From: Octopus vulgaris
Lineage: Eukaryota
Reading direction: 5' to 3'
Length of the DNA stretch: 64,000 nucleotides
NCBI GenBank assembly: GCA_951406725.2
Contig: OX597826.1
Location: forward strand, 18,104,001-18,168,000
How positions within the stretch are numbered: position 1 is the first letter of the stretch; every line of letters starts with the position of its first letter. The translations under genes were made by a program, and so were the position numbers. Below, piece by piece: positions 25,181 to 43,900 of the stretch. The notes beneath the pieces are model-generated. The model saw only the letters and a list, made by a program, of their open reading frames with translations. It did no database searches and was not told the DNA's origin.

Positions 25181-26217
25181 TTCTATGCATGTGATGTATT
25201 TTTCTGCTTATCTGTAAATTCCTTTGTCATTCCCTTGTGTGACATTTTCGCTCATATATATGTAATACATACACAGACATCTCAAGAATAAATAGACAGC
25301 CTTCATTATATTGTTTCATACATGCAGACATTACTTTGTACTTCAAACTTGTTAATGCATTGTGCACAAAGCATGCCTGCTTAATACTAGATTAAGTATT
25401 TAAATGTATTGAATGACATTTTGTTTCTCTCCAAAATGATTCTGTCTCTTTACCTTTAAGATGCTTGTGTATATATATTAGTGTATGTATATTTATGTAT
25501 ATATGCATACATATATATGGCCAATGCCGGTGCCACATAAATGGCATCTGTGCCAGTGACACGTAAAAGACACCCAGTACATTCTGCGGAGTGGATGGCA
25601 TTAAGAAGGGCATCCAGCCATAGAAATGAAGCCAAGCCAGACTGGAGCCTGGTGCAGCACTCTGGCTTACCAGTTCCAGTCAAACCATCTGACCCATGAT
25701 AGCATGGAAAATGGATGCTAAATGATGAGGATGATATATACACAAATACATGGTTATTAGTGTGTGTCTATATCTATATGTATGTAAGTATGTGTGTCTA
25801 TTTGAATATATAGAGGTGTGTGGATTAGTGGTTAGAGTGTTGAACTCATGGTCATGAGATTGTGGTTTCAATTCCTGGATTGGTCAATGCATTGAGTTCT
25901 TGTACAAAACACTTCGTCTCACCTTGCTCCAGTTCAATGAGCTGGCAAAAGTAAGTAACTCAGTGATGGATCAACATACTGTCCAGGTAAGGATGTGTAC
26001 ATATATACCATAGAGTTTGGGAAATCAGCCTTTTGGGTCTATGGATCAGAGAGGACCTTTGATCTTTTTTTTATGTTTAAATGTATGTATGCATATATAT
26101 ATTTACATATTGATACTGGAGCAGAAGCTAACATCAAAATATAACACCTTAAATAATATAAAAGATCTCTATAAAGGAAGAAAATTTTAAGAGCTTTTTT
26201 TATGAATGAGATTTCAC

Positions 26218-26373
26218 CTGTACAGTGTTCCTTTCCAAACCTGTCTCTAATAAATCCTGATGCACAAAAACAGTCCTCAATGGATGTGCTGCCAGCGTCA
26301 GCTGTGAATGAATCTGTTGGACAACGTTGACAACCTGTATCATTTACACTTCGATAACTATCATGAGGACATT
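26218..26373 (-). CDS. Exon, ephrin-receptor-like (GCC2/GCC3-type) cysteine-rich module
   Basis: ttttctttcag|AA...ACA G|gtgaaa; 156 nt, phase 1-1; (K)CPHDSYRSVNDTGCQRCPTDSFTADAGSTSIEDCFCASGFIRDRFGKEHCT has the CP..Y.....C..CP..S.T...G.TS..DC.C..GF pattern. Not in the ORF track. Confidence 0.92.
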
Positions 26374-27209
26374 CTGAAAGAAAACCAACAGAGGTGTGTT
26401 TAAATCGGAAGGATTAACCATTTTGTTTAGTCTTTATATAAAGTTTCTCCATGCTAAAGACAATAACACTGAGGAAAAAAATTTTATAGTAGTTCATTCC
26501 CAGAAGAAATATTGTGCTTATTAATTTACTATTTTCATCATCAGTTTCTTCATCAAGTCATTTTTTACCACAAGTCAATGAGGGAGATTCTACAAGGTTG
26601 TACAACTTGCTAGAAATTGCAGCCATATTATCCCTCTTCCTTCAGATTACACTCAGACATCTTAAAAAAAGGAGGAACATAAAGAATGTAGTCATGTCTG
26701 GAATAAGACATGCTGGCTATGGCTAGAAGACCTTTGTTTTAAATCATAAAATACGTCCTAATCAGAGATGAGAAGGAGAAGGACCACTGCCACCCACATC
26801 ACCCTCACCACCAGGTGTACAAGGATGAATCTGGTCCTCTATGGACACTGTATGCCCCACCAACAAGTCTCTCAGCAAACGTAATATATAAGGGCTGAGC
26901 ATTTCTTTCAGTACTGTCAGCTTCCCACAACAAAACTCTTATCTATGTCCAGTGTATTTTAAAAGAAGCTACTAGAAACCCTTTTGTGTAAAGCAGCAAG
27001 GACCAGAAAAACAGTGGGTTTTGAGCCTTTAACCACAGCACCAATAGCAGTACTATTATCAGCATCACTGAGTTCACATTTATATATTTAAGGATACATT
27101 CCACAGAAAGATAAAATGGAATAAGTAGAACAAGGGGAGAAACACAGGATAGAGAATCACTGAAGCGGTCACAGGACATGTGATGAAAGAGCTTTGACAA
27201 AGAAACTAA

Positions 27210-27307
<98 letters not shown>

Positions 27308-28489
27308 TGATAATAATAATATGACCATCCCCAAGTATAACAATATCTGTTTCAATACACAATTTCACATCAAGAATCTTGAGAAACAAATACATAAATC
27401 ATCATCATCATCATTGTTTAACGTCCGTTTGCCATGCTGGCATGGGTTGGACATGATATTTAATTTTGTTTGAGATTTGAATTTCTTACACCTCCATCAA
27501 TTCAGTTATTGATTTAATCCTCATCCAATACTATAACATTTGGTCTGAAATAGAGTCATTTTAATTTTCTGTGAAATGGAGAATCATTCTAATTTGCAAT
27601 GTGAAGGAATGAAGATTTTAGAAAATAACAGTTACAAAATTTCTTGTTCTTACACAGAAGTTTAATACTGATATTAGAAATTCAACAATGCCTTTCCCCA
27701 AACCCTTGAACTATGGAAAATGAAATTTACTTATAATACATACTTTCAACAAAAGAAATCTGATATAATAAAGTGAAGGCTTTGGAAGGAGCCAAAAAGT
27801 TGTAATTAATTTAAATGGCACCAGCAAGAGAAAATAAAATTAAAAAATAAAATTATTAATTTTGTTCAAGAGAGACAGGGGAGGCAACTCTGAAATTGAA
27901 ATTAATTTAAACTAATTAATTATACAATATAGTGTGGAGTGATCAGCATCATCACTGTCACGGTAATGATGATGATGAAGATGATGATGAAGAAGGAGAA
28001 GAAGAAGAAGAAGAAGATGCATTGTGTTCTACCAAACCACAGTGGCCACTTTTTTCTACTACAACAGAGCGGATGCAGTTGTCATGAACAGAAAGGATTC
28101 TGTAAGTGGTTTTCCATCTCATTCTAACAGGACAGTGCAACTAATACTGTGTTCAAGAAGGAGACTATGAGAGAGAGAGGGAAGAGAGAGAGAGGAGAAT
28201 GACAGACAGATGGACAGTGAGAGAAGTGGGATGGGATCAAACTCAGTATTTGACTGGTCATTTATTTTCCTAATATTTGAAAGATGAAAGATAATAATGA
28301 CCTTGATTGGATTTGAACTCAGAATGTGTAAGGTGGTGCAAAAACTGCAAGGCATAGATTAAATACTCCAAACATAATTTCCAATTCACCAACCATACAT
28401 AGTATTTGGGCCCTGCACTCAGTAAAAGAATGTCTGTCTAGGCTCAGGGTTTATAATTCTATCAATATTTTATTTCACTGCTGAAGGTT

Positions 28490-28680
28490 GCAAGGTGGTA
28501 GAATTGTTAGTACTTAACAGCATTTGATCTGTCTTTATATTCTGAGTTCAAATTCTACTGAGGCCCCTTTGTCTTTCATTTTTTTGGGGGGGTCAATAAA
28601 ATAAGTACCAGTTGAGCAACTAGGATCAATGTAACTGACTTTTCCTCTCCCACTAAAGTGCTGGCCTTGTGCCAAAATAT
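28490..28680 (+). mobile_element. tRNA-derived SINE, family A (decayed)
   Basis: ctgagttcaaattc...aaaataagtaccagttgagc...ggccttgtgccaaaat. Confidence 0.65.
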
Positions 28681-29424
28681 TATTTCACTGCTTCATCACT
28701 TTTGTATCAAGTTTGTGGGCGAACATCAAGTATTTGCTTATGCTTGTACCTGGAGTCTGCTTCATATGGAAGAAAAAATATCATTTCTGAATATAATGGA
28801 AGTTACTCTAGTATAGATGTCTTCTCTTTTCTCAAGATAAAGCCAATCTGCCAGGAAACTAGAATAGTATAATATCTCATTGATATTTATTATATCAAAA
28901 ACTGATGTTAAGTATAGTTTTAACTCCACTGAAATTTGAACCAAAAAGGCAAGACTATAACTAATATGCCATCATTAGATGATGATGACGATGACACCAA
29001 CGACGATGACAATGATGCCGATGATGATGACAACAATGATGATAGCTAAGAAGCATTGAGCCCAATGTTATCTCAGCCACAGAATGCGATACCTGAACCA
29101 GTTTAAAGATATCCTCTCCCTTATTTATGAAATATAAAAGATTTTATAGAGAAATGAAATGGTTAACTAGCAGATACTGGACTGCCAACACATTGATCAT
29201 AATTTCAAATCTGCCATGTTTTATTTGAGACTTTTTAGTTTTTTTCTCAAGCAAGACATTTAATTCTGCATAGCTCACTTCACCTTAATATCAAGAATAC
29301 AAATCAGTTACAAAAGAACTGGTATCCTCTCTGCCATGATGTATGGAGATAAGCACCTTCTTTATAGAGTACTGTGGTATGCAGAAAGATTTATCAGCTT
29401 TTTCCTCAAAAGTCTATAGGTGTG

Positions 29425-29468
<44 letters not shown>

Positions 29469-29506
29469 GCATATATATATATATATATGTATATGTATGT
29501 ATGTGC

Positions 29507-29558
<52 letters not shown>

Positions 29559-29586
29559 ATGTGTGTGTATATATATATATATATGT

Positions 29587-29825
29587 GGAGGCACGTGGCT
29601 TAGTGGTTAGGGTGTCAGCACCATGATTGTAAGATTGTGGTTTTGATTCCTAGACCGGGTGACGCATTGTGTTCTTGAGTTCGTTGTGTATATTTCCCGT
29701 TGCTCCAGTCCACTCAGCTGGCAAAAATATGTAACGTTGCAATGGACTGGCATCCTATCCAGCTGGGGAACACATACGCCATAGAAACTGGGAAACCAGG
29801 CCCATGAGCCTGGCTAGGGTTAGGG
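29587..29825 (+). mobile_element. tRNA-derived SINE, family B
   Basis: ggaggcacgtggcttagtggttagggtg...gattcc...ttgctccagtccactcagctgg; lies immediately upstream of the hammerhead element. Confidence 0.75.
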
Positions 29826-29892
29826 CTTATATTTTATATTTTTATATTTATATGTATAAAAAAAATTTTTTCACACTTATAATAAATTAAAT

Positions 29893-30003
29893 TCTCTGAA
29901 GAGTCCGTGGGGCATCCTTGTTAATGTCTCATTTATACCTGCCTTATATGGCTTATAAGTTAAATGAGGCATACTTGCCCTTACGGACGAAACAGCTGTC
30001 AGA
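29893..30003 (+). ncRNA. Type I hammerhead ribozyme (long stem II, minimal palindromic stem III)
   Basis: TCT-CTGAAGA(29896-29902)-GTCCGT...ACGGAC(29983-29988)-GAAA-CAGCTG-TC(30000)-AGA. The CUGANGA/GAAA/GUC core is complete and stems I-III can pair. Confidence 0.8.
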
Positions 30004-30187
30004 TATGATATAATTATATATTATATTTTATATTTTATATTTCTATTTCCTTGTCTAATTATATTTACTATATATCTTGTATAATGCCTTTACTGTTATG
30101 TAATGGTGTAATAAAGTATTGATTGGGTATCATCTGATGGTTGATGTTTGATTGATTTAAGTATGTTTTCTCCATTTTCTAATTTTG

Positions 30188-30237
<50 letters not shown>

Positions 30238-30654
30238 CTGAAATAGATGTGCTTTAAAAAAAATATTAGAATGGCTTAAAATCATTTTAGCCTCAACTAT
30301 AACACATTGAAATGTAACTAGCACCTACTTTCCAGCTAAGTAGTTTGAGAGAAACAATATATCTTGCTTAAGGACAACTACAGAAATAGTTTCAATAACA
30401 AGTCTTCATCAAAAATATGTTATGTTATAATATCATCCAAGGCGAAACTGAACTTGTAGTTCTTGCCATCTAAATAGATCTATGTTAACTTAAAATTTAC
30501 TTTTGGGGACATGATTTTATGATCAACATCATAAATTTCATCATCCAGATGCTGTACTCAGGATACTTTTCATAAAAGGAAAGATAATACAGTGTCAAGA
30601 AAAACAAACTATAATACTAAATAGCAATAAAACAAAAAAATAACAAACACTTAC

Positions 30655-30777
30655 TGCTACAGGATGTTCCACTTGACATTTTGTAGCCACTGGGACAATC
30701 ACATTGATAAGAACCAGGAATATTAATGCAGATATTGGAACAGCCATGAGTTTTGTTTGAAGCACACTCATCAACAT
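30655..30777 (-). CDS. Exon, cbEGF module
   Basis: ggtttccag|AT...AGC A|gtaagt; 123 nt; (D)[40 protein letters not shown]. Confidence 0.95.
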
Positions 30778-30929
30778 CTGGAAACCAAACGACATTGCAG
30801 ATATTTATTTTATGTACAATTTCTCTGCAGGTATTATATATAACTGACTTGTATTTCATTAGTTTACAGATTTGGGTCCAAATTCCCTATTGACATTTAA
30901 TGTAATGTAGTGATGGGTTCTACTAAGAG

Positions 30930-31169
30930 CAGAGCTGGTTTTAAGCCATTAGATAGACTTGTTCAAATTGGGGGCCACACCAAGTGAGGGCCCTGCACAC
31001 ATGGTCGAGTGGAGAATACTATGATGAATTTTTAGTATATCTTTGTGGCCTTTTGGCCAGGACTGGAATGCTACACAAAGCATAAAACATCAATCTTCAG
31101 TTAATGTAGAATAGAGGACCTCACTGACGATTCTCTATTTGGGCCCTGCACTTCCTAGCACCAGCCCTG
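30930..31169. mobile_element. hAT-like MITE
   Basis: Ends cagagctggt / accagccctg, internal gggccctgcac repeats, imperfect 8-bp TSD actaagag/actagtag. Confidence 0.5.
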
Positions 31170-31285
31170 ACTAGTAGTAATATTTATTATCCAAGTTTGT
31201 ATCATGAAATCAATGACATTAAAAAAGAAAATATTAGAGTAAAATTAAAGGATTGTGCTTAAATGGGCAACCTCTTCACAACAAT

Positions 31286-31321
<36 letters not shown>

Positions 31322-33043
31322 TAGATGCAGACATGGATATATGATTAAGCTGACTTTGCAATCACATGACCTCAGGTTAAGTTTGATTTGTATTGTACCT
31401 TGAGTAAGTGTCTTCCACTTGTCTCAGACTAAATAACACCTTGGAGCTGCGAGACATAAAAATTTATAGAAGCTTGTCATGTGCATCTGTACATGTGTAT
31501 ATGCATGTGTGCATGAACATGCATACATGCATGAGTGTGCATGTGTCTTTGTGCAGAAATGTCATTTGTTCTTCTTCACATGAGACCATCTAAGCATAAA
31601 ACATTGATGTCACATTTACAGTCTCTGTGAACAATATATCTTGTACTTATGTGCTTTTGAAGTTAAGTGGGAAAAAAAGTCCCTTAGTAGAAAAACTCGT
31701 AAAAGTTGGTGACAGGAAGAGCATCTGGTCATAAAATACTACTTCAAATAAGTTCTCAACTAACCCATGCCAGTATGAAAAGAACGAGGGTAAAATGAAC
31801 GAACTGCAAGCTAAGTAAATACATAAAATTTACATGGAGGTTAAGCAAGTGAACTAATACTTATACATGGTAACTATCCACATTATGGAGAACTGAAGTG
31901 CAGAAAGGTGACCCAGGACGTTGAACTCTTCAGATGAGATGATAAAGAACCAAGATACCTGGTGCCTTGTTGTACCCAAGAAGACTTGTTCTCTTCGCAG
32001 CAGAGACCATATCCCCTGGTGAAGAGGATTGGCTTGCAAGAGTCCTGTACTGGAACCACATAAAAAGCACTCGTGCCTTTGCCACGTAAGAGCACTTGTC
32101 CCAGTGCAACAGTAAAAGCACCAACCACACACTGTAAAGTGGTGTCGTTAGGAAGGGCATCCAGCCATAGAAACCATGCCAAATCAGATTAGGACCTGGT
32201 GTAACTATCCACCTTGGCAGCTCCAGTCAAACTGTCCAACCCATGCCTGCATGGAAAATGGACATTAAAGGATGATGATGATGATGATGATGATGATAAC
32301 GGTGAATGAATGTATCTTTCCAAGGGGATGTTATGCAGTACTATATATGATAATATATGAACTTTCAATTTTTTATCTGAAATAGGTTACATTCTCAACT
32401 CAGCCAGTAGTACTGGTTTGTTTAGATATCATTAATTCCTCTTTCTTCAAATACAACCGTAGCAAGAACAGCATTAATGACAACCTCACCACCATCACCA
32501 TCCCTATCTCAGACTACACAGAACTGGTTGAATCAACAAGGGAACTCCTGCATGGTCACTTGACCTGCTAGAAACAGCAGTCATGTTTCCTTCAAACTGC
32601 ACACTATTGTATTAAAAATGGGAAAAAAACACATGGATTAATATAGTTCTAGGCAAACATAAAATACGGAATGGTTATGGCTGAAATGCATCTGAATATA
32701 GGCCATTCAGTTGATCAGGGTTTAATCATTGGAGACAACTGGTTACAAGCACAAATCTTGGTTACAAGCACAAATAGCATTTTATCTTGGAGTTAATACT
32801 ATCCACCCAAAATACCTAATATTCTTGAAGCAAATGAAAGATCTGTGATATGGTCACTCAACATGACAGGAAAACATCCCTTCGATGGCTTGACTGCCAT
32901 CTTAGAAAAGGAAAGACACATTTGATGATCTTATATGTGAATGAGAAATAAGATGGAACAGTTATGCCTGGAATGTCTAGGATTCTAGGTTTGATTAACA
33001 GGAATGATCTGTGACTAAGTTGCAACAGCACTAATATTCCTAC

Positions 33044-33166
33044 CTTGGCAGGTGTATCCGTCTTCACTTAGGGTATATCCAGTCATACAGTAACAACGGT
33101 AAGAACCCTGTGTATTCTCGCAGGCCTGGTGGCAGATACTTTTATTCAGGAAGCATTCATTGATAT
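33044..33166 (-). CDS. Exon, cbEGF module
   Basis: tttctaatttcag|AT...CAA G|gtagga; 123 nt; (D)INECFLNKSICHQACENTQGSYRCYCMTGYTLSEDGYTCQ. Confidence 0.95.
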
Positions 33167-33429
33167 CTGAAATTAGAAAGCAAAAATAATATTGCTCATT
33201 ACATAAACCATAAGAGCTGCAATAAGTGTGTCGGAGAGGGTTTGTTTCTCGTTTGACACACTGATCTATCCACCCAAGAGAGAGTTGGTTGTCACCTGAG
33301 ACTCAACAAACTCTACAAAGAGAACAAGCACAGCATGTTTTACATCACCAGGAGCTGCTCACACACAGTCCATAGCCACAGACCACTAATACAAAGAATC
33401 AAACATACTGAAAATGAAAGACTATCCAA

Positions 33430-33770
33430 ACTAACACAAATGGACATGCTTACAAAATCAAAAAAACAACACAGTACCCATGACTTTCAGAAATATTTTT
33501 TATTCACACACAGAATCGCTAAGGCATGGAATAAACTACCGGCATCTGTTGTTAGCAGTCAAGACACTACACCCTTCAAAACTTCCATGCTTCTTGAAAT
33601 TTTCCAACAGTATACCTGATGTCCCACCACACCTGTTTTTTCTTTTATATAGATTTATTCACTGTTCACTTCCTGTGCACATTTTATATACTGTTCATGT
33701 AATTTTTGTTACTTTTTCTGATGAGTTGTAGTGCACCTGAGCACTGTATACAATAAATTCCTTATCATTA
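33430..33770 (+). mobile_element. CR1-type LINE 3' end
   Basis: TNGHAYKI / KQHSTHDFQKYF.FTHRIAKAWNKLPASVV..QDT..FK, followed by a 3' UTR ending in aataaa plus att repeats. Confidence 0.7.
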
Positions 33771-34220
33771 TTGAAGAAGAACCATTTGAACCATTTGTTA
33801 CCGTAGTGAAAGCTCCAACTCTCACTGTCTCTGGCTCTGTGTGTGCAATTACCCCTTTAACACACAGACTCATCTGCAATTCCACCTTCTTACAACACCA
33901 CCCTAATACTTTCCTTCCTAAATCAAGCAAACAAACATAAAAAGCATATATGAAAGAAAATAAAAGCAATGTTGATAACCCCAAACAATGTCCTGGGACA
34001 CACACAATTACTGGTACATCATTCTCCCATTGATTCCACCTCATCCACTTCCCATGTTATGACCACAGGAGCCTACAGGTGCCACACACATTCACACATT
34101 CATTGTACAGAGAGAAAAGTTCAACACATTCAGTCACATTGTCCTCTTTACAATAAACCATTGTATATCAAGCAGTAGAATGTTTGTTAACTTGTAGGGC
34201 AATAGTATATCTGGAACAAC

Positions 34221-35639
34221 AGCCATAGTCTCATATAAATTGAATCAAGGAAATATTATACCACAGGGAGAGATCAGAGGCAGATGGGTTGAATTGTGCA
34301 AGTTCAGAGAATATAACACTACAGACAAAATACTCATTAGGAACAGATTGGTAACACCCAACTATGGCTGTCTGGTCTTTAGTGTTTAATTAGCTTTGCT
34401 CTGACAACGATGACAACAACAATTACAACAACTGTTTGATTGTGCCTACTTATTTGATCAACATTCTATGTCTACTTGATGCAAGTTGACCAGAGGTTAA
34501 ACAAGGACATGCAATGCACAACTAGATTTTGTCTTCTTTATTTGTACCACTGCTATTCTAAAATTTCCAAACTAATGCTGATCTCACCTAAAACCTGATA
34601 AACAACAGCTGCTGCTACTGCTGCTACTGCTGCTGCTCACTCTTTTGATTCCTTTTTTGTCTTCATCTCCCTTGCCACAAGATCTGTTGCTATCACTAGC
34701 AGAGCCTCCTCAACATCACCTTGTATAGTGTGATCAACATCAGACTCCAAACAAAATATTTTACCCAAACCTCTTTTTAAGAGAAGCATATTGTTTTGGA
34801 AATCCTTCCTAACCTATTTTCTTCCTATGTATTAACTTATGGCAATTCTAAACGAACCAAATGAAGAGAATCATCAGAATGTATAATCCAAGGATTGTGT
34901 CCATGTGAATCAGATTGGAAATAAAATCTTAGCTGTATATTGTTGTATGGTTAGCTGAGGTAAGGACTAACAGTTTGTGTAATACTCTTTATTGAAAAAG
35001 AAAGGGGAACGATATTCATTTCTGCAAAACATTCTCTATTCCAACTGCACAGCAACATACTTCTTCAATTAACCATATCTAGTTCATCGCCAGCCCCTAG
35101 TATCATTTTCTGCTTCCCTTGCTTATGCTAACACATAAGCTGAAAATCTTTTAGTAAGCCTCTCAACTACTTACCAATCTTAATAGTTTTAATATGAAAT
35201 GCTATATAGAGTGACATGATTAGCTACAATAGATGTCTTACAGTTGGAATATCAATCACTAAGGCATGAAATAGGATCAATACTTAGCTTTCAACAAGGT
35301 AGAACCTTGTTTACTTGCTTGTAGTAGTTAGATCAAACCAGTTTTTTAACCAATGTTATTGGGAAAGGCCTGAACATCACAATTTAGTATTTCCCATAAT
35401 TACTTTTATTTGTAATTTAGAAATCATTTCACTTGGTATGTCATAACATAAATAGCCATTGTCATATAAATTGAATCAAGGAAATATTATCCCACAGGGA
35501 GAGATCAGAGGCAGATGGGTTGAATTGAGTAAGTTCAGAGAATATAACACTACAGACAAAATACTTGTTAGGAACAGATTGGTAACACCCAACTATGGCT
35601 GTCTGGTCTTTAGTGTTTAATTAGCTTTGCTATGACAAC
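34221..35639. repeat. About 185-bp direct repeat pair (34221-34408 and 35454-35639)
   Basis: Near-identical copies, only about 10 differences by eye, about 1.23 kb apart. Confidence 0.9.
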
Positions 35640-36039
35640 TATTGTAATATACTGTAAGGATTTTGCAATTCTACCTTGTCCTTTAAATGCATGAGTGAAA
35701 TAACTGAGTAGTTTTAGTATAGTATAACCAGCTCAGAGCCATCCAGTAGATATGGGTTTGTATAACCAGCTCAAATAATACTTGGTACTATATAACTAGC
35801 ACATAAGATATTAGAGAAGCAGCTTAAACAAGGTGAAGCATAAAGATCTCCCACATTTGGAGTGGGCCCTGTGTGGGCTGTAGTGGTGGTATAAAGGTGG
35901 AGCAGGTCTTATTCAGTAGGCTAGACTCTGTTATTTTCATTTTCTGCATCAATTATCATAGCAATTTCTCTATCATTTTCAGAACCCATCATGAGTTGGA
36001 TCAGTGAACATTGTGACTTTGTTATATTATGAAAACAAC

Positions 36040-37127
36040 CAATCTGTAATAGCAAGACAGCAAGAGTTCCATAGACACTTTCACGCACAGTACAAATACA
36101 TCTGTACCAGATCAGAAAACAATTTTGCTTTGTAAAGAAAATCACCTGGCAGACCTACGACCGTTAGAACTCCAGAAAATGTGGCAGCAGTAAGAGCATC
36201 CATTCAGCTATCACCAAAGTGTTCCACTCATAAGCAGAGAACTAGAGTTTGAGGAAGATTCTGCATGCCAATTAGAAACTGCATCCTTATAAAATGATGT
36301 TGGTTCAAGAATTAACTGAGACAGGTCATAATAACCGCAGAGCTGTATGTGTGAATAGTCTTGCACAAGTTTCTGCTGCAGCTTTTCTTTTGAGTACCAA
36401 TGAGGTTCAATAACATATCAATGGAACTGTAAACAAGTAAAATTTTCGCTACTGGGCTGAACATAATCCTCATGAACTCCACCAATGATTGCTTCACTCT
36501 TCTCACATAACTGATTGGTGTGAAGTTGCCAGCTTTGGTATGATCAGCCCGTACCCTTTTGAAGAAGGTGGTGCAACAGTAACTGTTACCTCTGACTGAT
36601 ATGTTGCAATGTTGGAGGCCTTTCTGCACCCCAAACTGGACGATTTGGACACAGAACATCTGTGGTTTTAACAGGACGAGGCCACAGCTCACACAGCATG
36701 ACATTTACTCAGAGTGTTAAGGGAAATGTTTCCTGGGCATTTGGTTTCTTTAAGGGGAGACGTGGGGTGGCTGGCAAGATCACCAAATTTAAGCCCTTGT
36801 GAATTTTTCCTTTGGGAATACTTAAGGGAAAAAGTTTTCTGACATCGTCCTCAAACTCTTGAGGATTTGAAGGAAAGGATCAGAGATGAAATTGATGCAA
36901 TTCCACCTGAGATGACATGGAGAGTCCCGAAGAACTGGGAATGACTCCATCAATGTATTGCCACCAACGACTGCCATTTATCAAACATAACTTTTAAAAC
37001 CCATTAAAATAAAACTATGTTTTATGTACTTTTCAGAAATATAATCAGTTTTTTCCTAGATAGTTGTGTTCTTTTTTTATATCCATTTGGGATATAAAAA
37101 TTTGGGAAATCTTTATGTCCCACCCTG
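36040..37127 (+). mobile_element. Tc1/mariner DD41D (rosa/Visitor-type) transposon relic
   Basis: RPTTVRTPENV...LHPYKMMLVQEL...NFRYWAEHNP...WF*QD-41 aa-E(D)FFLWEYLREKV; multiple stops; ends in CACCCTG TIR-like terminus. Left boundary approximate. Confidence 0.85.
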
Positions 37128-37668
37128 TCATCATGGTATTTGTATAATCATCTGAGTGATTATTGTATTGCATGATCTGCTTAAAGATATAGCATTGTAT
37201 AACCTGTTAATATAAATGGTACTGTAGAACCACCTCAAAGATATGCTTTATAACCAGAACTTATAGATTTGGCACAGTATAATCCACTAACAGATACAAG
37301 TATATTATTTAATAACCGTCTAAGAGATATGATACTGTATAACTAGCTGAATAGATATAGTACTATATAACCTGCATACAGATATAGTATATCAGTTCAC
37401 TGATATGGTTTGTGTAGCCAGTTGAGTAGATGTGATATTGTAAAACTAACACCTAGATATAGTATTACAAGAGAAGATGTGATTCTTATCAATCTAAAGC
37501 TTTGAAACAGGAGCTAAACACCATTCTTTTAAATTCCCTTGAAACTGTATCAAGCATATTCAGGTCAAGAGTTTCTAATTACATAGATTGTCTATAACTA
37601 AAACACTAAAATACATAAAATTGATGAATCGGTTAGAGGATGAATAAGAAAAGGCTCAAATAACTTAC

Positions 37669-37791
37669 CAATGCATGATCTTCTGTTGCTGTGTAGGATG
37701 AAACCAGTTTTGTTACAGAAACATTCAAATGATCCATTATTATTGACACAAACATCATCACAGATGTAATTATCTTCACACTCATTGATGT
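37669..37791 (-). CDS. Exon, cbEGF module
   Basis: ctttgtctag|AC...ATT G|gtaagt; 123 nt; (D)INECEDNYICDDVCVNNNGSFECFCNKTGFILHSNRRSCI (within track ORF 37598..37810). Confidence 0.95.
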
Positions 37792-37899
37792 CTAGACAAA
37801 GAAATAACAAGTTTGAGAAATATTAAATCTTATTTATACCAATTTGATGGGGTTGGTGCATAAAGAGTTGTCAACAGGAGGAACTTGAACTTAACATTT

Positions 37900-38816
37900 T
37901 ACATGTGATGTCAGTGTGCATACTCGGCAGAGTGTAGGTATCTTGAGAGAAAAGTTGGACCTAAGAAGCATCAGATGTGGTGTGCAAGAGAGACAACTGC
38001 ACTAGTATGGACATGTGGTGCAAATGGATGAGGACAGCTATGTGAAAAAGTGTCACACCTTAGCAGTTGAGGGAATCTGTGGAAGAGGTAGACCCAAGAA
38101 GACATGGAATGAGGTGGTGAAGCATGACCTTCGAACATTGGGCCTCACCAAAGCAATAACTAGTGACCAAGACTTTTGGAAATATGCTGTGCTTGAGAAG
38201 ACTCGGCAAATGCAAGTGAGACTATAACCTTGTGGCCTATGCTAGGGGTGTAACCAGCCCACTTATGCATACTTTTCCTTCGTTGGACACTAAACTCTGC
38301 TTGGGAAGACCTGTTGAGGCAAGTGAAATTGAAATCAAAATCAAATTTGGTGACTGGCATCCGTGCTAGTGGAGTGATAAGAGTACCATCCGAGTGTGAT
38401 CGTTGCCAGAGCAGCAAATTGGCTTCCATGCCAGTGGGACATAAAAAGCACCATTCGAGTGTGATCGTTACCGGCATTGCCTTACTGGCACTTATGCTAG
38501 TGGCACGTGAAAAAACATTCAAGTGAGGTCATGACCAGTGCTGCTGGACTGGTTTTTGTGCAGGAGGCACGGAAAAAAAACACCATTTGAGCGTGGATGT
38601 TGCCAGTACCACCTGACTGGCCCTCATGTTGGTGGCACGTAAAAGCACCCACTACACTCTCAGAGTGGTTGGCATTAGGAAGGGAACCCAGCTGTAGAAA
38701 CTCTACCAGATCAGATTGGAGCCTGGTGCAGCCATATGGTTGGCAAGTCCTCGGTCAAATTGTCCAACCCATGCTTGCATGGAAAGCGGATGTTAAACGA
38801 TAATGATGATGATGAT
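37900..38816 (+). mobile_element. 5'-truncated RTE LINE with full 3' UTR and (GAT)n tail
   Basis: LREKLDLRSIRCGVQERQLH*YGHVVQMDEDSYVKKC...GRGRPKKTWNEVVKHDL; 3' UTR with internal subrepeats (aaaaagcaccattcgagtgtgatcgtt) ending ccatgcttgcatggaaagcggatgttaaacgat(gat)n. Confidence 0.85.
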
Positions 38817-39092
38817 ATGTGAATAAGCCACCATATCCACAACTATTCATAAACTGTTCCATAACAGTCAGAAGCATCTCCAAGAGCAAAATGAGTATCC
38901 AGTTTTAATGTACAAATGAAGGTAATTTCCATGGGAGATGTTTTTGACAAAAGCTGTTGCTAACCAAGAAAGTAGTTAAGTGGGGATAAAGAATTAGATT
39001 CTACTTTTTTTAGGGTTTTTTTCTTCTTTTTTATAATTTCAAATCTCTTTCCCTTAGCTCAGATGAATAATGTAGGCTTTTGTATGATAAGC

Positions 39093-39430
39093 TCATGTGG
39101 GACTCACACAGGGCCCACACAAACAAGGGAGGCTTAAACTGAGGACACTCTGAAAAGCAACCTTAAATGGAGTGGCATTAGACCATGTGGACTTCATGAG
39201 CTCTGCTGCAGACAGATTAGCATGGCTTCTCACCTCACAAGCAGTGGCTGCCTTTGAAGAGGACCAGTGTTTCACCGTTGCAAGAGACAGACATCACAGG
39301 GCAGGTAACAGACTATTGTTGTGACATCTGTAGGTGCCTGTGTGCTTCCAGGTTTGGACTGCTAAGTCACATGTGCCTTCGTTGCCAAGAACACAGACTC
39401 TGTCATCATCGGACACGTATGGATTACCAA
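39093..39430 (+). mobile_element. RTE (BovB-like) LINE 3' fragment
   Basis: LTQGPHKQGRLKL / DTLKSNLKWSGI...AADR..W...AFEED and terminal CDICRCLCASRFGLLSHM zinc-finger-like end. Confidence 0.7.
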
Positions 39431-40064
39431 GAAAAGGTATGGTTAAAAAGTTCACACCACAAGCATGGTGCCACTTGTTCAATCCCACTATGTGACATCA
39501 TGAGCAGGATTGAAGAAGCTTCAAATCAAAAGGCAGAGAATTCTGATTTGTAATAATAACCACAGAAGTAACTATTAAGGTGGTTTAGTGTTAGTCCTAG
39601 TTACAACTATGTTGAAGCTATTTAGGTGTGTCTGTGTGTTTGTACAGGGAAATTAAAGAGGGATGGTAATTGTTGAATACATTGGTCAAAAATATTTAAA
39701 GACTAGAAAAACTGAAGTAGAGGAAAGAAGTTCCGAAAGAAGAGAACTTTAAAAGAGTTAACACCTCTTTCAGATAGAAACACAGATAAAGATAATAGAA
39801 TAACTTGGTGCATGAAGATAAATTTTTTTCAAATTTTACCATTTACAGAACAAAATCAAAAAGTACAAAAATGAAAAAGGAGTAAGTTGTTATTTATTTA
39901 TATTTATATTTTTCAATTTCAAGGTTCACTTAACACATTTTTTAAAACACAATGAGTTATAGTTTTTACTAAATATTTAATTTCTTTCCTTCTTTTAAAT
40001 ATGTATATTTATTTCTGAATTTATTTAAAAAAAGAAAATCATTTGTGTGGATGTACATATATGT

Positions 40065-40655
<591 letters not shown>

Positions 40656-40857
40656 GCTGAATATATAAGCATATAGACCTATAACAATCTCCAAATGATG
40701 TATTTGGCTAAAAACCATAAATGAGGACACAAACATAAAGGAAAAGAAAATTATCTGGAGAAAGAAGTTTTGGTGTTTTTCATTTTGTTGGACCTATTTA
40801 TTGGTTTAGCAAACAATAAAACTTGCAAGTTAATCTGACTACAAGCATTTTACTGAC

Positions 40858-40980
40858 CAGTACAATTTTTGGTATTTGGCTTCAATTTAAAACCATGAGA
40901 ACAGGCACAGTAGCTGCTGCCGACAGTGTTTACACATATCTGTGAACATCCGTCATTTTCTTTGGCACATTCATTTACAT
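40858..40980 (-). CDS. Exon, cbEGF module
   Basis: tttttcctctcag|AT...ACT G|gtcagt; 123 nt; (D)VNECAKENDGCSQICVNTVGSSYCACSHGFKLKPNTKNCT. Confidence 0.95.
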
Positions 40981-43900
40981 CTGAGAGGAAAAAGAAATAT
41001 TCATATAAAACTCATAACAATAAAAAAAAAGTATTGCTCTGTGGTCAGAATCTTCTCTGAATGAGAGAACAGATTTAGAAAGTAGAAAATTGTAGATTTG
41101 TTTTATCTTTTCTTATATCTTTAATCATAAAGAATGTAAGAATATCATACCATTGCAGACAGGAGTTCAAGCATAATGACTAATTGAAATGACATACTCA
41201 CTGTCTTGCACCAGCTGAGTATTGACTCCATTTATAACTTAGGTACCACACTGTTGGGGTTCCTAGCAAAAACCTGTTCAGTCACAGAATGCAGTTGCTT
41301 CACTGAACCTGGCTCCCTCACTTTACTCTGCTCAACCAGATTACTATGGCAGGTTGTGAACTAGTGAGCAACTGACTGTATCGCATGCTACACACAGTAA
41401 CCAAATATCTCACAATTAGCAAACAGTCATTCTGGAAAAGGGAGAGAAAAATATTAGGTACTCCACCCACAAACTGATAAGCAGGTCAAAGGTCAAAGTT
41501 AAAATGCCTGAGATCCTTGGCTTGTTGGATCAGAGTTGACTTGAAACTACACAACAATCTCAACAGATTGACTTTTCTTTTAGTATATTCTCCCAAAACG
41601 TCCCACAAGGTTACTTAAATCAAATTAATTTGTACTGTATGAGGACACAATATTTACAGTACTTCTAATTAGACCCACAGTACCTTGTAGCCATACTCAG
41701 AGTAGCCACAGATCTAGTCTTTCTCATTCGCAAAATGGGATCCCCCCTAATTTTGCTCAGATTGCTTTCAATTTTGGTGTATCGATGCAAATCTGAATTT
41801 TGATTATGACCAACCAATTACTTTATCTTGTAAATTAAAGAATCTGATGTTATTTGGAATTAAAGTTGGGAAATTAGGGTAATTTTGGCCAATCAACAGA
41901 CAACGTGGCATTAGCAGGTTGTTACCATGACAACCACATGTTATGTTGTTGTTCACTGTTGTCTGTGCTGCAGTTGTTTATGTTGATTTTTCACACTTAG
42001 TTTTTTTTACTTATTTTTCATTTCATACATTTTTGTGATTCATTGTCTCAGATAGCTGGATTTATGATTTCACTAGGTAAATTCTATTCATAAAAATTTA
42101 AATTAGGAGTATTTCTTAAACCGTTAGCTTCACATTTCAACAGCTTAACTGAAATTTAGCACACGTAACAGTAACTGAGAGGGATATTGTGGAACAGAGA
42201 AACCGTGGGTGATACAGATAATTTGACATTCTTGTTGAATTCTGCATGCAGAAATATATACTATACAGGAATTCTTTTCCTTGGGTCAAATTCTTTGTTG
42301 ACCAGTATTATTCTTATCGTAGTTTACAAATCCAAGCATGAAAACGTTACTCAACTTTGGAGTTTTGGAGACAGATGCCCATTTTTCACACACACACAAG
42401 CACTTATATATTATTGGTGTACATAAATACATGGTAGATATACATAATAGTGAAGTATACATAAAGCAAACACATGCAGACAAATATATTAATATAACAA
42501 ATTAAAAATAATAAAAACATACAATCAATAAAGAGACAAAAGAAACACTAAGATGATAAATGTTGATTTTATTAGGTATTTCTGTTTATTTAGAAACCTA
42601 AAATGAAATTAGGTATTTCTGTTTATCTAGAAACCCACAGTGAACAGGTTAGATGCTAAACTATAAATTTCACAGGGTACAACCTTAAAGTTGACACTGC
42701 TCTGTTTTCTAAATGCAGAAAATTTCTGTCTTGGCTAAAAATATCCAGTTTTTTCAATTTTTAAACCTCTGTAACTTGTATCTCAAATTTTTTTCTCCAC
42801 ATCATACCGTCAAAGCAATGAGACTGGAAGGCTACATTATTATAGCAAATTTTCAGATTTTTTACTTCCTTTTAAAAAATGCATATTTTGCAAATGGAAA
42901 AAAAAAAGATCTGTAGCCTCTTGCTAGATCAAAGCTGCTTTCTTGACATACCAACACTACATTCCAGCCACACAAACACCATCTTCTAACCTTTACCATC
43001 ATTATTACCTTCAAGCTATACCAACATTACTACCTAGCCATGGTAAGACTTGCTTCTAGCTATTTCAATAAAACCTAGCGGTATCAAAATTACTTCCTAA
43101 CTATACCAACACTGCAGGCTATACAAATACTACCTTCCATATACAAATGCTGTCTTGTAGCTATACAGCTCAACAAGCACTATCTTGTTGCTATACTAAT
43201 CCTACCTGCTTGCTAGATCAACACTACAGTCTAGGCATAGCAACACTACCTTCTAGCTATATGAAAATTATCCTAGCTATATGAACATTATCTTCTGACT
43301 TATACCAGTACTAGCTTGCAGTTATATCAACACTGGTGGTCATTTAGCTCCTCTTATACAACAAGCTACAAAATGATTTCAACAGTCTTCACAGTAACTG
43401 TTTTAGTGCCTTTTACATCAGTTGTCCTATGGCTTGGAACATCCAATGTTAACAGAGTTACATCCATGTTTGCTATGGGACACACTTCAAATGAAACTCA
43501 TTTTCTTCATTGTTTCACAACTAGTGTTGGTATGCTTACATCCCCATAACTTAGTGGTTTGGCAAAAGAGACATATAAAACCAAGTTTAAAATTTAAAGA
43601 AAAGCACTGAGGTTGATTCATTCATCTAATATTCTTCAAGGCAATGCTCCAGCATGGCTGCAGTCTAATGACTGGAACAAGTAAAAGACAAAACATATGT
43701 GATCTTCTTTGTGACACAGATTACCATATTTGTAGAAACAGATAGTCTTTGCCTTCTCAAATCCACAACCCATTTAATATATTAAATATGTATATATAAG
43801 ACCTTATCATTTTGCTTTTTTCCTTGCTGTAAATTGCATTTATCTCTTTTAACAATTTTCAATTTTTCTTCTTGACTGAGTCAGCAACAAATCATTTATT

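Follow-up and report, generated by a model that had tools for sequence, protein, structure and literature searches.

Does the hammerhead-like motif that lies within an intron of an Octopus vulgaris gene represent a genuine ribozyme, which element brought it there, and is it likely to act at this site? The stretch of DNA analysed, called the window below, is 64 kb long. A type I hammerhead, with a CUGANGA/GAAA/NUH core, three helices and ends in stem I, is found in it with the following parts:

29893-29895, + strand: 5' strand of stem I, pairing with 30001-30003; 3 bp here, 2 bp in several relatives
29896-29902, + strand: catalytic core CUGAAGA
29903-29988, + strand: stem II, 86 nt; 7 bp, bulge, 5 bp, internal loop, 12-bp helix and capped hairpin
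29910-29914 with 29976-29980, + strand: GGGCA/UGCCC helix of stem II
29924-29935 with 29961-29972, + strand: 12-bp helix of stem II, including one G-U pair, with the GCC-uuauau-GGC cap above it
29989-29992, + strand: catalytic core GAAA, located by the Rfam match and by its coordinates
29992-29999, + strand: palindromic stem III ACAGCUGU; 2 bp as a monomer, 8 bp as a dimer, self-duplex -11.1 kcal/mol
29998-30000, + strand: GUC triplet; cleavage predicted after 30000, placed via the Rfam alignment

The core, the stems, the G10.1-C11.1 pair and the GUC triplet all lie where the first-pass annotation had put them, and its caveat that stem I holds only three firm pairs is borne out. Comparison with the Rfam Hammerhead_1 model (RF00163), proposed there as a check, yields a match to the full model at 29891-30006 (24.2 bits, E 0.0031), stem II representing a 78-nt insert relative to the model. 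As this score lies below the gathering score of 34 bits, which is a library cut-off and not a biological feature, a default Rfam scan of the 64-kb window at the gathering score returns no match. The folding z of the region 29880-30020 is -4.15, with none of 200 shuffles as good, and that of stem II alone is -6.4. In most copies of the element described below an extra 4-bp helix is found under the stem II cap; it is weakened in the window copy by an A at 29958. The whole core is intact in 50 of the 54 marker-selected copies that span it, as the annotation's test of conservation among genomic copies had foreseen. The window motif is confirmed as a genuine hammerhead.

The window copy is the 3' end of a dispersed element

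The hammerhead is part of a short copy of a repeated element:

29827-30187, + strand: 5'-truncated 3' end (pseudo-LTR region) of a Penelope-like element (PLE) assigned to the Hydra clade, subfamily A1, 361 bp
30188-30234, no strand: (TA)n run that follows the 3' end of the copy, probably the target of insertion; the same type of junction is seen across copies

A genome search gave 1,516 first-look candidates, and the 40 that were scored are all 95-100% identical, which bears out the earlier suggestion of a dispersed young family. A 32-nt marker located downstream of the hammerhead has 470 exact matches in the genome and none in the control. The copies share a common 3' end, followed mostly by (TA)n, and extend upstream to a variable degree; inverted pairs occur in L022, L023 and others. 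The window copy is 96-98% identical over 354-361 bp to four of them (L002, L003, L034 and L035), and L034 and L035 (96-97%), the two among ten long stretches fetched in which an ORF is reached, run 4-5 kb upstream into this ORF on the same strand. The first-pass annotation had proposed a non-autonomous retroelement family; this proposal is not supported, the window copy being the 3' end of an element and colinear with copies that reach a reverse transcriptase (RT)/endonuclease ORF.

No second hammerhead or other piece of the element is found elsewhere in the 64-kb window, and among the families listed by a repeat search of the window there are only microsatellite-dominated ones. On its upstream side the copy adjoins a very high-copy repeat (29586-29826, + strand), with a depth in the thousands, which we take to be SINE-like; the 5' junction lies in the AT-rich end of this repeat.

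A protein search for the element gave 124 matches among 121 scored of 9,043 candidates. Among the family A copies read, intact ORFs occur only in subfamily A2, which is about 81% identical to the window copy; those of L052 and L053 encode 955 and 960 aa. The four A1 copies read that carry the ORF (L034, L035, L051 and L056) are all frameshifted or truncated. A pLTR-ORF-pLTR layout with a unit of about 5.6 kb is observed in L053 and L054, where each pseudo-LTR contains a hammerhead, 5,579 and 5,604 bp apart. In L054 a 177-bp tail at the 3' end continues into the next unit, and about 520 bp separate the hammerhead from the start codon downstream of it. A minimal hammerhead with a 12-nt stem II and without stem III, located upstream of the A2 element (L052:1696, + strand), is probably the end of another PLE family sharing the (TA)n site.

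A fold search was used because the Pfam search of the element proteins gave no match and their PDB sequence searches failed to recognise them, the best match being a retron RT at E 0.014. The predicted structure of the L052 protein has a mean pLDDT of 77.5. Its top matches are telomerase RTs (Foldseek E 5.4e-9; VIA Z 16.8, rmsd 4.0, 293 aligned), and residues 834-937 match the GIY-YIG domain of I-TevI (Z 10.1, rmsd 2.3, 89 of 92 aligned). As judged from this predicted A2 structure, the element is a Penelope-like element with a telomerase-like RT and a GIY-YIG endonuclease in one ORF. Two Asn-rich inserts of low confidence (residues 514-633 and 722-813) lie between the RT and the endonuclease, and are still longer in families B and C. 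Named homologues are found in Argonauta hians and Octopus bimaculoides, which makes an octopus host likely and agrees with the cephalopod family of the first-pass annotation.

The element is placed in the Hydra clade by motifs and (TA)n targeting; the protein tree comprised only these families and unnamed or non-TE-annotated homologues. The features described for this clade are DKT, RWK, CxCX5C, CxxC, CxH and (TA)n targeting (PMC8557442). In place of DKG, L052 has DKT at residue 147, as do all five of the family proteins that were scanned. The third residue of the N-terminal RWK motif varies (RWR in A2 and B, RWK in C, RWL in D). The CxCX5C linker is present in L052, L053, L054, L055, L065, L058, L059 and L061; its second Cys is Phe in the A1 copies L034, L035 and L056 and in L064, and no match to the linker was obtained in the family D proteins. 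In the clade, CxxC and CxH surround the conserved E and N of the endonuclease, which has no CCHH; L052 has CxxC..E at 915 and a terminal CxH, and a reading by eye shows no CCHH in it. Insertion at (TA)n is seen at 3' junctions across copies. In family D, head-to-tail units of 3,624 bp occur in L314 (G000:C1:119514200-119522400), with ORFs of 899 and 867 aa that have no CxCX5C linker; elsewhere in the genome family D still ends in (TA)n.

The lack of any intact ORF among the four A1 copies, together with the short and non-coding nature of most copies, could be taken to mean that A1 is itself a non-autonomous, retrozyme-like element, which appears improbable. Published definitions of retrozymes require tandem units of a few hundred bp (PMC7229834; 10.64898/2026.07.22.740005, as far as the available text of these sources goes), and non-LTR retrozymes are short tandem non-coding units with no ORF. 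The copies of the window family are not short tandem monomers; they end at a common 3' position, begin at staggered positions and align colinearly with the element that bears the ORF. Since none of the four ORF-bearing A1 copies read has an intact ORF, the A2 protein may now copy A1 in trans.

Tandem arrays of another kind exist in this genome. Those at L240/L241 (G000:C1:33099609-33105375) and others are composed of units of about 545 bp with a 26-nt stem II and a palindromic stem III, and are retrozyme-like. Two further arrays, of 534-bp units (G000:C1:5011305-5012441; arm of 50 nt) and of units of about 594 bp (C1:10836774-10838643; arm of 70 nt), are candidates for true retrozymes with long arms.

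An insertion antisense to a host gene

The copy is located within a host gene that extends over 26042-41011 on the minus strand, contains several EGF_CA exons and an Ephrin_rec_like exon, and may be SCUBE-like. The exons that enclose the hammerhead are the following:

26042-26413, - strand: Ephrin_rec_like exon, on the other side of the hammerhead from the two EGF_CA exons
30620-30886, - strand: EGF_CA exon, domain at 30656-30781 (Pfam PF07645, E 1.1e-9), splice sites visible; opposite in orientation to the hammerhead
33018-33302, - strand: EGF_CA exon, flanking the hammerhead

Since minus-strand exons flank 29827-30187 on both sides, the hammerhead is antisense within an intron, as the first-pass annotation had noted, and this holds at the level of sequence. 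An intronic position and an intact core might point to co-option, the copy acting on the RNA of the host gene. This is highly implausible: the hammerhead runs opposite to the host exons, lacks a partner within 64 kb and is 96-98% identical to young dispersed copies, so that its intact core is explained by youth. The retention of CpG in stem II had been attributed to youth or constraint. Retention is indeed seen (observed/expected 0.58 against 0.20 for the window, small numbers, there being only 3 sites), and of the two explanations youth suffices, the family being young. This single intronic antisense copy, without a partner in the window, is probably an inert insertion, and is of no evident importance for the host gene.

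Palindromic stem III and proposed dimeric cleavage

How could a hammerhead of this type be cut? In family A, stem I is 2-3 bp long, and 4 of 14 variants cannot form its outer pair. The full hammerhead fold of the monomer is predicted at -32.7 kcal/mol, against -36.1 for stem II alone, so that closing stem I and the monomeric stem III would cost energy. When two copies are folded together the prediction is -88.3 kcal/mol, compared with -81.8 for two monomers, and the palindrome is paired between strands.

The palindrome offers a comparison that supports dimers independently of folding models. Its two central bases, left free in the genome pattern described below, cannot pair within one strand. 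They are nevertheless complementary in a Watson-Crick sense in 20 of 27 sequence clusters (27% expected), and with G-U included in 26 of 27 (39% expected), through several different dinucleotides, the clusters sharing ancestry and thus not being independent. Self-complementarity of a centre that is unpaired in the monomer favours cleavage as a dimer and is the best evidence here for a putative dimeric helix III. Together with the cofolding, it agrees with the earlier suggestion that the palindromic stem III belongs to the type I kind of Penelope pseudo-LTRs thought to cleave as dimers. A dimeric helix III has been proposed for PLE hammerheads (PMC4209133; PMC6765202).

A long stem II is the rule among pattern matches

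The first-pass annotation had called stem II unusually long. At 86 nt it is so relative to published Hydra hammerheads (10-24 nt), but the length is not specific to this family and is the common form among pattern matches in this genome. In the ORF-linked families stem II measures 55 (D), 57 (B), 60 (C), 85-86 (A), 100 and 106 nt. A genome-wide pattern consisting of the core, a G, a spacer, GAAA, a six-base stem III and GUA or GUC, with the reversed pattern as control, gave 784 matches (control 38) for stem II of 9-39 nt, 18,765 (40) for 41-71 nt and 3,603 (30) for 72-102 nt; the pattern excludes minimal hammerheads without stem III, those with another base after the core and those with a stem II of 40 or more than 102 nt. 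A long stem II is the rule among the pattern-matching hammerheads of this octopus genome, 22,368 of 23,152 matches (96.6%) having one of 41-102 nt. When the first 50 long matches were examined, 47 had two or more adjacent pairs in stem I. In most of them the arm pairs with itself, in a few only poorly, and the sequences form 27 clusters. In tblastn searches with the element proteins, 2 of 62 pattern loci (with 1.5-kb flanks) had an ORF match, so that for most long-armed clusters the present data give no link to an ORF.

Several variations accompany these motifs. One family (L246, L249, L252 and L255) has a stem II of 73-80 nt by virtue of a simple-repeat loop, which is one way in which the arm grows. 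Other families (L059-L063, L105 and L103) have G10.1-U11.1 instead of the usual G-C, together with a GUA triplet.

Helix II of family A covaries. In 14 hand-picked variants 97.2% of cells are paired and 3 pairs show double changes, all in the proximal 12 bp (8 of 500 shuffles reach as many; kinship among the sequences can by itself outdo shuffles where no structure exists). In the same variants, pairing of the distal helix amounts to 99.6%, with one-sided changes only, one pair occurring as C-G, U-G and U-A. With the two most divergent relatives added, 94.1% of cells are paired and 8 pairs show double changes (0 of 500 shuffles), the alignment of these 16 being less certain. Slid controls are 26-42% paired. 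The compensatory changes that the annotation had sought in the stems of genomic copies are therefore present in both sets. Judging from folding and comparison, the long stem II would fold on itself as a rod, keep its G10.1-C11.1 base and be tolerated as long as it remains paired. A kissing-loop role for the apical loop was considered and dropped, the loop differing between subfamilies.

Could the arm be a selected functional module, either a binding platform for the element protein or a dimer-stabilising arm that replaces loop-loop contacts? The long stem found in every ORF-linked family examined (55-106 nt), its predominance among the 23,152 pattern matches and the near-complete pairing of the distal helix in the 14 variants would suit such a role, which we regard as possible but rather unlikely. 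Arm length and sequence vary freely between families, 50 motifs falling into 27 clusters, and some arms consist of expanded simple repeats. The outcome would look alike if error-prone copying tended to lengthen hairpins. Slightly more speculative still is the broader proposal that Hydra-clade elements of the octopus have extended stem II to an arm of 50-100 nt, which selection would maintain in dozens of families and over 22,000 genomic copies because it binds protein or stabilises the dimer of a ribozyme that works only in pairs, and that a large ribozyme population is thereby hidden from standard Rfam scans.

Do copies begin at the predicted cut?

If cleaved RNA served as template, copies might begin at the hammerhead cut. 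Of 95 marker-selected copies of family A, 17 have their 5' end between -2 and +18 of the cut against 3.1 expected (Poisson P 4e-8), including 6 in -2 to +2 against 0.7 expected. Four of the 95 rows (L197+, L194-, L131- and L143+) are not counted as true ends, since an internal deletion or a run of T had cut the alignment short; rows from -169 outwards, which include alignment stops at subfamily indels, are counted only as at risk; and inverted pairs are counted as two ends. The family A stretch near the cut is TA-like, however, and can anneal to the (TA)n target, and the excess relative to other TA-like stretches has a P of 0.08. Family D, which has no TA-like stretch at the cut, shows 2 of 63 starts in -2 to +18 against 4.8 expected, and 7 starts at -21 to -13, the 3' base of stem II, against 1.8 expected (P 0.003), a position that fits stalling of the polymerase at the arm. 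That copies begin at the cut thus seems doubtful, and as a general rule it is not accepted, families A and D giving opposite results. Four contig sets, whose RNA type is a guess, contain pieces of family copies and are uninformative on strand, on starts and on this locus.

A model for the window hammerhead

The explanation that we favour, and consider probable, is that the motif is the hammerhead of a pseudo-LTR, carried by a truncated Hydra-clade Penelope element of which 361 bp are present, that a full-length RNA of this element is likely to be cut after GUC only when two hammerheads pair through their 8-nt palindromes, and that the lone antisense copy is probably inert. By analogy with published PLE work, transcription would start from the upstream pLTR, the element endonuclease would nick the (TA)n target, and reverse transcription would start at a fixed internal site near the 3' end; its early termination would have left the window copy behind. 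The fixed 3' end with its optional 177-bp tail fits such internal initiation, as shown for the anole element. Full-length transcripts would bear two hammerheads, so that pairing in cis may be possible.

The hammerheads of PLEs cleave weakly, even as dimers (PMC4209133), and may be dispensable; in the anole element cleavage needed protein and was dispensable for insertion in vitro (PMC11167929). The octopus genome provides many related families whose ORFs are intact, whose arms range from 55 to 106 nt and whose palindromes differ, a panel suited to tests of dimer dependence, protein assistance and use of the arm. Because motifs with a long stem II score under the Rfam cut-off, as the window copy does, ribozyme counts in similar genomes are likely to be far too low.

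Comparison with known systems

Lunse et al. are said to have treated dimeric PLE hammerheads, in what is reportedly the most relevant paper on the subject. A literature search returned no report of long stem II hammerheads in octopus or in PLEs from the portions of the sources available, and Lunse et al. or the supplements of PMC4209133 may already show long stems.

The metazoan PLE hammerheads of Cervera and De la Pena (2014, PMC4209133) resemble that of the window in being of type I, in their short helix I, G10.1-C11.1 pair and palindromic helix III, in a bulge within helix II, as in D. virilis, and in their proposed dimeric action; scattered single and opposite-strand copies derived from truncated PLEs are likewise common to both. 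The helix II described there as "larger than usual" has 7-8 bp, however, compared with about 30 bp in the window hammerhead, and family A lacks the extra base between positions 9 and 10.1. Metazoan non-LTR retrozymes (PMC7229834; 10.64898/2026.07.22.740005) share with the window copy a type I hammerhead, AT-richness and a likely PLE origin, but consist of short tandem non-coding units, whereas the window copy is the truncated end of an ORF-bearing element. Poseidon PAc of Anolis (Frangieh et al. 2024, PMC11167929) has, like family A, two fixed 3' ends, with and without a tail into the next unit, and an AT-rich target. Its tail is 30-40 bp long against 177 bp in L054, and its hammerhead overlaps the start codon instead of lying about 520 bp upstream; the two belong to different clades.

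The Hydra clade itself, including Hydra-1_Obim (Craig et al. 2021, PMC8557442), shares with the window family a single ORF with RT and C-terminal GIY-YIG, the DKT, CxCX5C, CxxC and CxH motifs, (TA)n insertion, a canonical hammerhead near the 3' end and inverted 5'-truncated copies. The units are longer here, 5.6 kb in family A and 3.6 kb in family D against the "generally <3 kb" of published Hydra elements, a descriptive and not a diagnostic feature; the excess in family A corresponds to a 2-kb 3' UTR and the two Asn-rich inserts. Three stem III motifs of the octopus families have no match in the available supplement of PMC8557442, a weak comparison given that its File S2 splits motifs into columns. 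Hydra pseudo-LTR hammerheads are already published, including one octopus family. Stem II with its loop measures 10-24 nt in 25 published Hydra families, and the longest among the File S2 rows listed, about 52 nt, belongs to a non-Hydra plant element; in Hydra-1_Obim it is 22 nt, against 85-86 nt in family A.
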